A stretch of DNA of 64,000 nucleotides, taken from assembly GCF_036507355.1 (NCBI RefSeq), contig NZ_AP027877.1. One strand, 5' to 3'. The translations under genes and the position numbers were made by a program. The DNA comes from Escherichia coli (GTDB lineage: Bacteria > Pseudomonadota > Gammaproteobacteria > Enterobacterales > Enterobacteriaceae). The notes beneath the pieces are model-generated. The model was not told where the DNA came from. It did not search any database and worked only from the letters and a program-made list of their open reading frames with translations. Below are positions 36,221 through 36,474 of this stretch, one piece after another; the stretch's first letter is position 1, and each line of letters begins with the position of its first letter.

Positions 36221-36373
36221 GTTCGTGTCTCCTGAAAAAAAATCGTTCTGAATAAGTGTAAACGCGCGATTGTACCATTACCAATAGCGCTTTTACTATG
36301 TTGTGACCTCGGTTCCGGGAAACAAACCTGGCCAGACATTGTTACACAACACTCCGGGTAATGCATTCCAATA

Positions 36374-36389
36374 CTGTATATTCATTCAG
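36374..36389. promoter_or_regulatory. LexA SOS box of divergent uvrA/ssb promoters
   Basis: CTGTATATTCATTCAG matches CTGT-N8-ACAG. Confidence 0.7.
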
Positions 36390-36474
36390 GTCAATTTGTG
36401 TCATAATTAACCGTTTGTAATCGCCGGTAGCACCATGCCACCGGGCAAAAAAGCGTTTAATCCGGGAAAGGTGA

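Follow-up and report, generated by a model that had tools for sequence, protein, structure and literature searches.

A LexA binding site (SOS box) shared by the divergently transcribed genes ssb and uvrA has long been known from Escherichia coli K-12. Its sequence is TACTGTATATTCATTCAGGT, with an HI of 6.98, and it is traced in PMC9505508 to Brandsma 1983 (Nature 305:243), Brandsma 1985 (NAR 13:5095) and Fernandez de Henestrosa 2000, the last of which is cited there for the lower-affinity LexA binding that accompanies this value. As the two Brandsma papers are cited in PMC9505508, ssb has three promoters, only the most distal of which is controlled by LexA, and the one box is common to both genes; the mapping of one LexA-controlled ssb promoter in these papers is cited in PMC3323433 as well. 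The latter study describes a single LexA site common to uvrA and ssb, in E. coli as in other Gammaproteobacteria. The uvrA gene is UV-induced (PMC3009722; PMC9505508), and the motif was recovered upstream of the UV-induced uvrA transcript and listed as the uvrA LexA motif (PMC3009722).

A similar arrangement has been reported for Salmonella enterica (PMC8072944). Although this is a different genus, the divergent ssb-uvrA pair again carries one box (HI 6.99, 80 nt from uvrA), both genes are damage-induced, and the basal expression of ssb is independent of LexA; the pair was left out of the distance analysis of that study because its box is shared. The single-operator SOS promoters of uvrB and lexA are alike in that a CTG-N10-CAG box lies over core promoter elements and RNA polymerase is occluded. 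They differ from the ssb-uvrA region, where the divergent transcription units have one box between them and ssb has further promoters independent of LexA.

The stretch of DNA analysed here (64,000 nt, referred to below as the window) is from contig NZ_AP027877.1 of an E. coli assembly (GCF_036507355.1). Its ssb-uvrA box is identical, base for base, to that of K-12, and the flanking genes, their orientation and the distances are the same. The box is the long-known LexA operator, the same element as in K-12, and is in this sense nothing new. Its identity is supported alike by sequence, position, conservation and published experiments: the motif at 36374-36389 can with considerable assurance be taken as the operator through which LexA acts in the divergent ssb-uvrA control region, placed on the uvrA promoter and very probably also restraining, to a modest extent, the distal ssb promoter.

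The ssb-uvrA locus

The control region and its two flanking genes are as follows.

35684-36220, minus strand: ssb, single-stranded DNA-binding protein, 178 aa (open reading frame list; NCBIfam NF006533, 360 bits, full length; K-12 ssb, b4059)
36221-36474, no strand: divergent ssb-uvrA control region, 254 bp, the gap between the ssb start codon (36220, minus strand) and the uvrA ATG (36475, plus strand)
36475-39297, plus strand: uvrA, excinuclease ABC subunit A, 940 aa (open reading frame list; NCBIfam NF001503, 1628 bits; K-12 uvrA, b4058)

By direct reading of the sequence and by the open reading frame list, the spacer is exactly 254 bp long and non-coding. It was found at a coverage of at least 80% in 5425 of 5426 complete E. 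coli genomes, with identities ranging from 90.9 to 99.6%. Alignment to K-12 MG1655 (294 bp compared) revealed one substitution and one single-base difference in the length of an A-run. The match of the spacer and its flanking genes to E. coli identifies the window as E. coli chromosome, in an orientation that is reversed relative to K-12.

Two details of the spacer may be recorded. At 36419, in the uvrA leader (+7), the window has A where K-12 has G; nearly all E. coli alignments end there, and the variant appears to be rare. Upstream of the ssb ribosome-binding site there is an A8 run (36235-36243), which is A7 in K-12. A possible hairpin in the uvrA leader (approximately 36424-36447) was rejected as a feature, its folding energy being no better than that of shuffled sequences (z = -0.29), and an Rfam scan of 36000-36700 returned no match up to E = 1.

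The LexA box

36372-36391, no strand: LexA (SOS) box, the 20-mer given above, with the CTG-N10-CAG core at 36374-36389 (exact search, PWM, conservation and literature)

Exact search located the 16-bp, palindrome-like core sequence, CTGTATATTCATTCAG, on the plus strand at 36374-36389 as a single occurrence in the 64-kb window. The first-pass annotation had placed one SOS box at this position within the 254-bp divergent region, in agreement with the search and with the coordinates of the open reading frames. The 20-mer matches the consensus TACTGTATATATATACAGTA at 15 of 20 positions (five mismatches). A search of the whole window for this perfect consensus, allowing up to three mismatches, gave zero matches; as a test it was too strict, because the real SOS boxes here carry more mismatches than that. 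At the other extreme, CTG-N10-CAG alone is uninformative, since the window contains 23 copies where 12.6 would be expected, and a leave-out PWM was therefore built. It has 18 columns, is strand-symmetrised and is derived from 11 published sites (PMC3009722, Table 7), the uvrA site being excluded.

On this matrix the box scored 16.9 bits (16.6 bits with a uniform background), the range of the training sites being 17.4-27.2 bits. It is the second-best match in the window, the first and third being two lexA operators. In random sequence composed like the window, the number of hits expected at this score is about 0.05 per 64 kb, or about 0.0002-0.0004 per 254-bp spacer, and only 0.04% of random 254-bp sequences with the composition of the spacer reached it. 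The motif scan thus bears out the annotated box, and also the claim that it stands alone, since the runner-up site within the spacer scored only 2.6 bits.

The gene for LexA itself lies 18 kb from the ssb-uvrA box in the same window, together with the two other high-scoring sites.

54046-54654, minus strand: lexA (TIGR00498, 289.5 bits)
54663-54678: lexA operator CTGGGTGTATATACAG (PWM score 20.1 bits)
54684-54699: lexA operator CTGTGAGTATATACAG (PWM score 16.2 bits)

The two boxes are situated just upstream of lexA and are its known autoregulatory operator pair. Next after lexA is an open reading frame for a membrane protein of 459 aa (52648-54027), which we take to be at the place where dinF would be expected.

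A further PWM match, GCTGTTTTTTTATCCATT (13678-13695, 15.2 bits), was rejected as a LexA site. Its second half-site reads CAT, not CAG, and the segment consists of the 3' arm and the T-run of a hairpin resembling an intrinsic terminator (CAGCCTCC-TTTC-GGAGGCTG, then T7) that follows an open reading frame ending at 13647.

The uvrA promoter

The transcription start site of uvrA was located by 454 sequencing at -62 from the ATG, where it coincides with the known promoter uvrAp (Mendoza-Vargas 2009, PMC2760140, supplementary file 3). The -10 element assigned to uvrAp in that supplement is ttgtGTCATAATtaac. A strict sigma-70 promoter and terminator scan of 36100-36600 found nothing; with a weak -35 and a reliance on the extended -10 at uvrA, a lenient promoter scan was then used, and the elements below were obtained.

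36413, plus strand: uvrA transcription start site (published -62 converted to window coordinates)
36399-36407, plus strand: uvrA extended -10, TGtCATAAT (lenient scan; same -10 as in the published uvrAp)
36379-36384, plus strand: putative uvrA -35 hexamer, TATTCA, 3/6 matches, inside the LexA box (lenient scan; 17-bp spacer to the -10)

Counted from the start site at 36413, the LexA box extends from -39 to -24 in the uvrA promoter and includes the -35 hexamer. This is consistent with PMC9505508, where the box is stated to overlap the uvrA -35 region. A box positioned to regulate uvrA, as the first-pass annotation had it, is therefore what the published start site implies, and comparison with the mapped uvrA operator leads to the same place, the box being identical to that of K-12 and to the listed uvrA LexA motif (PMC3009722). 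Since the -35 hexamer has only three of six matches, the promoter assignment depends on two other elements, the published start site and the extended -10. The CATAAT hexamer of the latter is kept in six Enterobacteriaceae sequences and reads TAATAAT in two Photorhabdus sequences, and the upstream TG is present in all but one.

Conservation of the box

The 30-mer around the box is found without change in 4699 of the 5426 complete E. coli genomes, leaving about 13% without it. Four of the variant strains were sampled. Three of them carry C->T at 36392, a polymorphism that falls one position beyond the end of the 20-mer, and one has a change at 36361; the 20-mer is unchanged in all four. The most divergent E. 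coli match (90.9% spacer identity) also has an unchanged box and -10, even though substitutions are numerous immediately before the box. The box is thus identical in K-12, in the four sampled variants and in this most divergent match.

For comparison across species, a sample of 80 loci encoding UvrA N-termini was assembled, with one genome per species, and the sequence upstream of uvrA was scanned with a threshold of at least 11 bits, the 99th percentile of the null being 11.5 bits. Boxes at or above this threshold, 27-99 nt upstream of uvrA, were detected in Escherichia albertii, Citrobacter, two Enterobacter, Klebsiella and one Photorhabdus, and further afield in four Vibrio, Aeromonas, three Pasteurellaceae, Psychromonas, Colwellia, Parashewanella and one further gammaproteobacterial genome. 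Among the 24 closest loci (L003-L026), 19 have a box of at least 11 bits no more than 100 nt from the uvrA start. In another of them, Photorhabdus cinerea (L009), the box is 191 nt upstream of uvrA with an inserted repeat in between, and in Enterovibrio the distance is 217 nt. No box of at least 11 bits was seen upstream of uvrA in the Pseudomonas, Shewanella, Pseudoalteromonas, Marinobacter, Xanthomonadales and certain other members of the 80-locus sample, more distant lineages among them. In an alignment of eight Enterobacterales species, the box and the -10 form the best conserved non-coding block. The motif is accordingly conserved in Enterobacterales and in other Gammaproteobacteria, namely Vibrio, Aeromonas, Pasteurellaceae and part of the Alteromonadales, the point on which the first-pass annotation had made its reading depend.

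The neighbourhood of uvrA is less constant than the box. The adjacent divergent gene is ssb in Enterobacterales and Pasteurellaceae, whereas in the sampled Vibrio (L010 and L015-L017) what precedes uvrA is not ssb but a galU-like gene in the same orientation, together with a terminator. Vibrio hepatarius (L010, 1360-1500) nevertheless has a strong LexA box, TACTGTTTTTTTATCCAGTA, of 22.9 bits, 67 nt upstream of uvrA. Because the box stays with uvrA in Vibrio despite the non-adjacent ssb, the comparison shows uvrA to be the primary target of the box.

Two other features were noticed upstream of uvrA in the sampled loci. The insertion in P. cinerea (L009, approximately 1340-1470) is about 125 bp long, separates the uvrA -10 region from the start codon, and is absent in P. 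caribbeanensis; it resembles an enterobacterial intergenic repeat of the ERIC/IRU type. Six Pseudomonas loci (L029, L031, L032, L033, L036 and L039) share an identical 18-mer, AGTGTGCATCCATCCAGT, 48-50 nt upstream of uvrA. It scores only 7.9 bits as a LexA box and may be either the remnant of a LexA half-site or a site used by a different regulator.

The ssb promoters

On the other side of the control region, 153 nt separate the LexA box from the ssb ATG. The minus strand offers the following candidate promoter elements.

36338-36346, minus strand: extended -10-like TGtAACAAT of a candidate promoter in the ssb direction, about 111 nt upstream of the ssb ATG (lenient scan)
36269-36277, minus strand: extended -10-like TGgTACAAT of a candidate proximal (constitutive) promoter for ssb (top minus-strand scan score)
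36389-36394, minus strand: -35-like TTGACC abutting the box, tentatively the -35 of a back-to-back ssb promoter whose spacer would contain the box (a weak reading, from the reverse complement)

The hexamers of the LexA-sensitive ssb promoter may be among these candidates. The TG of TGtAACAAT and the AA of its hexamer are invariant columns in the eight-species Enterobacterales alignment. Its predicted start is about 50 nt from the centre of the box, and the element lies downstream of the box without overlapping it. The TTGACC element is not conserved, as the C->T polymorphism at 36392, which is common in E. coli, turns it into TTAACC and its sequence varies among Enterobacterales. Published start-site surveys list no ssb site in the Mendoza-Vargas 2009 supplement, which does list uvrA, and neither gene in the Kim 2012 supplements.

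It is conceivable, but rather doubtful, that TGtAACAAT (36346-36338, minus strand) is the LexA-sensitive ssb promoter, with LexA acting over roughly -43 to -58, immediately upstream of its -35 region. Were this so, repression would have an unusual and weak geometry, or would be indirect, via competition with the back-to-back uvrA promoter, and this could explain a response of ssb only to strong SOS induction.

Expression of ssb has been followed by RT-qPCR (PMC9505508), and rose about 7-fold after gamma rays and up to about 18-fold after UV. There was no induction in a lexA3 strain and strong overexpression in lexA(Def), and during undisturbed growth the ssb transcript was equally abundant in the wild type and in lexA3. 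No induction of ssb had been detected in older immunoassays or in three microarray studies, as these are cited in PMC9505508. Given this absence of induction in the older studies and the equality of wild type and lexA3 in unstressed cells, LexA control of ssb is weak or conditional. The inducible ssb promoter of the first-pass annotation matches the literature, with its distal promoter and LexA-dependent induction by UV and gamma rays, so this half of the annotation holds on the strength of published work, while the uvrA half follows from the position of the box relative to the published start site.

The sole serious rival to a shared operator accepts the box as a real LexA operator, but as one that in function serves uvrA only, with ssb in effect constitutive and its SOS response indirect or an assay artefact. 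The similar distance of the box from uvrA with or without ssb as a neighbour, as seen in Vibrio with its galU-like gene, would fit such an arrangement, as would the 153 nt between the box and the ssb ATG, the position of the best conserved minus-strand element (TGtAACAAT) downstream of the box and clear of it, and the several older and three microarray studies without ssb induction, together with the equal transcript levels of unstressed wild type and lexA3. It is difficult, however, to reconcile with an ssb transcript that increases about 7-fold (gamma rays) or 18-fold (UV), shows no such increase in lexA3 and is made in strong excess in lexA(Def) (PMC9505508), or with the LexA-controlled ssb promoter mapped in Brandsma 1983 and 1985, as cited in PMC9505508 and PMC3323433. 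Moreover, Vibrio in which the pair is disrupted keep separate LexA sites for ssb and uvrA (PMC3323433), which argues for selection on the regulation of ssb. An operator acting on uvrA only is consistent with the weak, conditional response of ssb, but the results in lexA3 and lexA(Def) speak against it, and we regard it as improbable. A chance CTG-N10-CAG match in an AT-rich spacer, with no regulatory role, could appeal to the abundance of the pattern (23 in the window against 12.6 expected) and to the capacity of a small PWM to mislead, as with the 15.2-bit terminator T-run at 13678-13695, but it is effectively refuted by conservation and the literature: 16.6 bits are reached by only 0.04% of random spacers, the block is the best conserved non-coding one in Enterobacterales and recurs upstream of uvrA in distant Gammaproteobacteria, the box overlaps a mapped promoter, and published experiments show LexA-dependent regulation.

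Model of regulation

With the box as a LexA operator shared by the two genes, regulation may be pictured as follows. In undamaged cells a LexA dimer would occupy the box, with the moderate affinity described in the literature. The box covers the -35 hexamer and the upstream part of the spacer, so that bound LexA, lying over -39 to -24, would occlude RNA polymerase at uvrAp, probably by steric hindrance, and keep uvrA at a moderate basal level. Repression is likely to be leaky because the site departs from the consensus (at 5 of 20 positions; HI 6.98). Upon DNA damage, RecA-stimulated self-cleavage of LexA would free the promoter and uvrA would increase several-fold, in line with the induction described in the literature.

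The same single box would also restrain the most upstream of the three ssb promoters, which fires in the opposite direction (a layout taken from the literature). The two downstream ssb promoters would be LexA-independent; expression of ssb would therefore be constitutively high and rise only on strong SOS induction. In this way, the operator would couple nucleotide excision repair (uvrA), and less strongly the provision of ssDNA-binding protein (ssb), to DNA damage.
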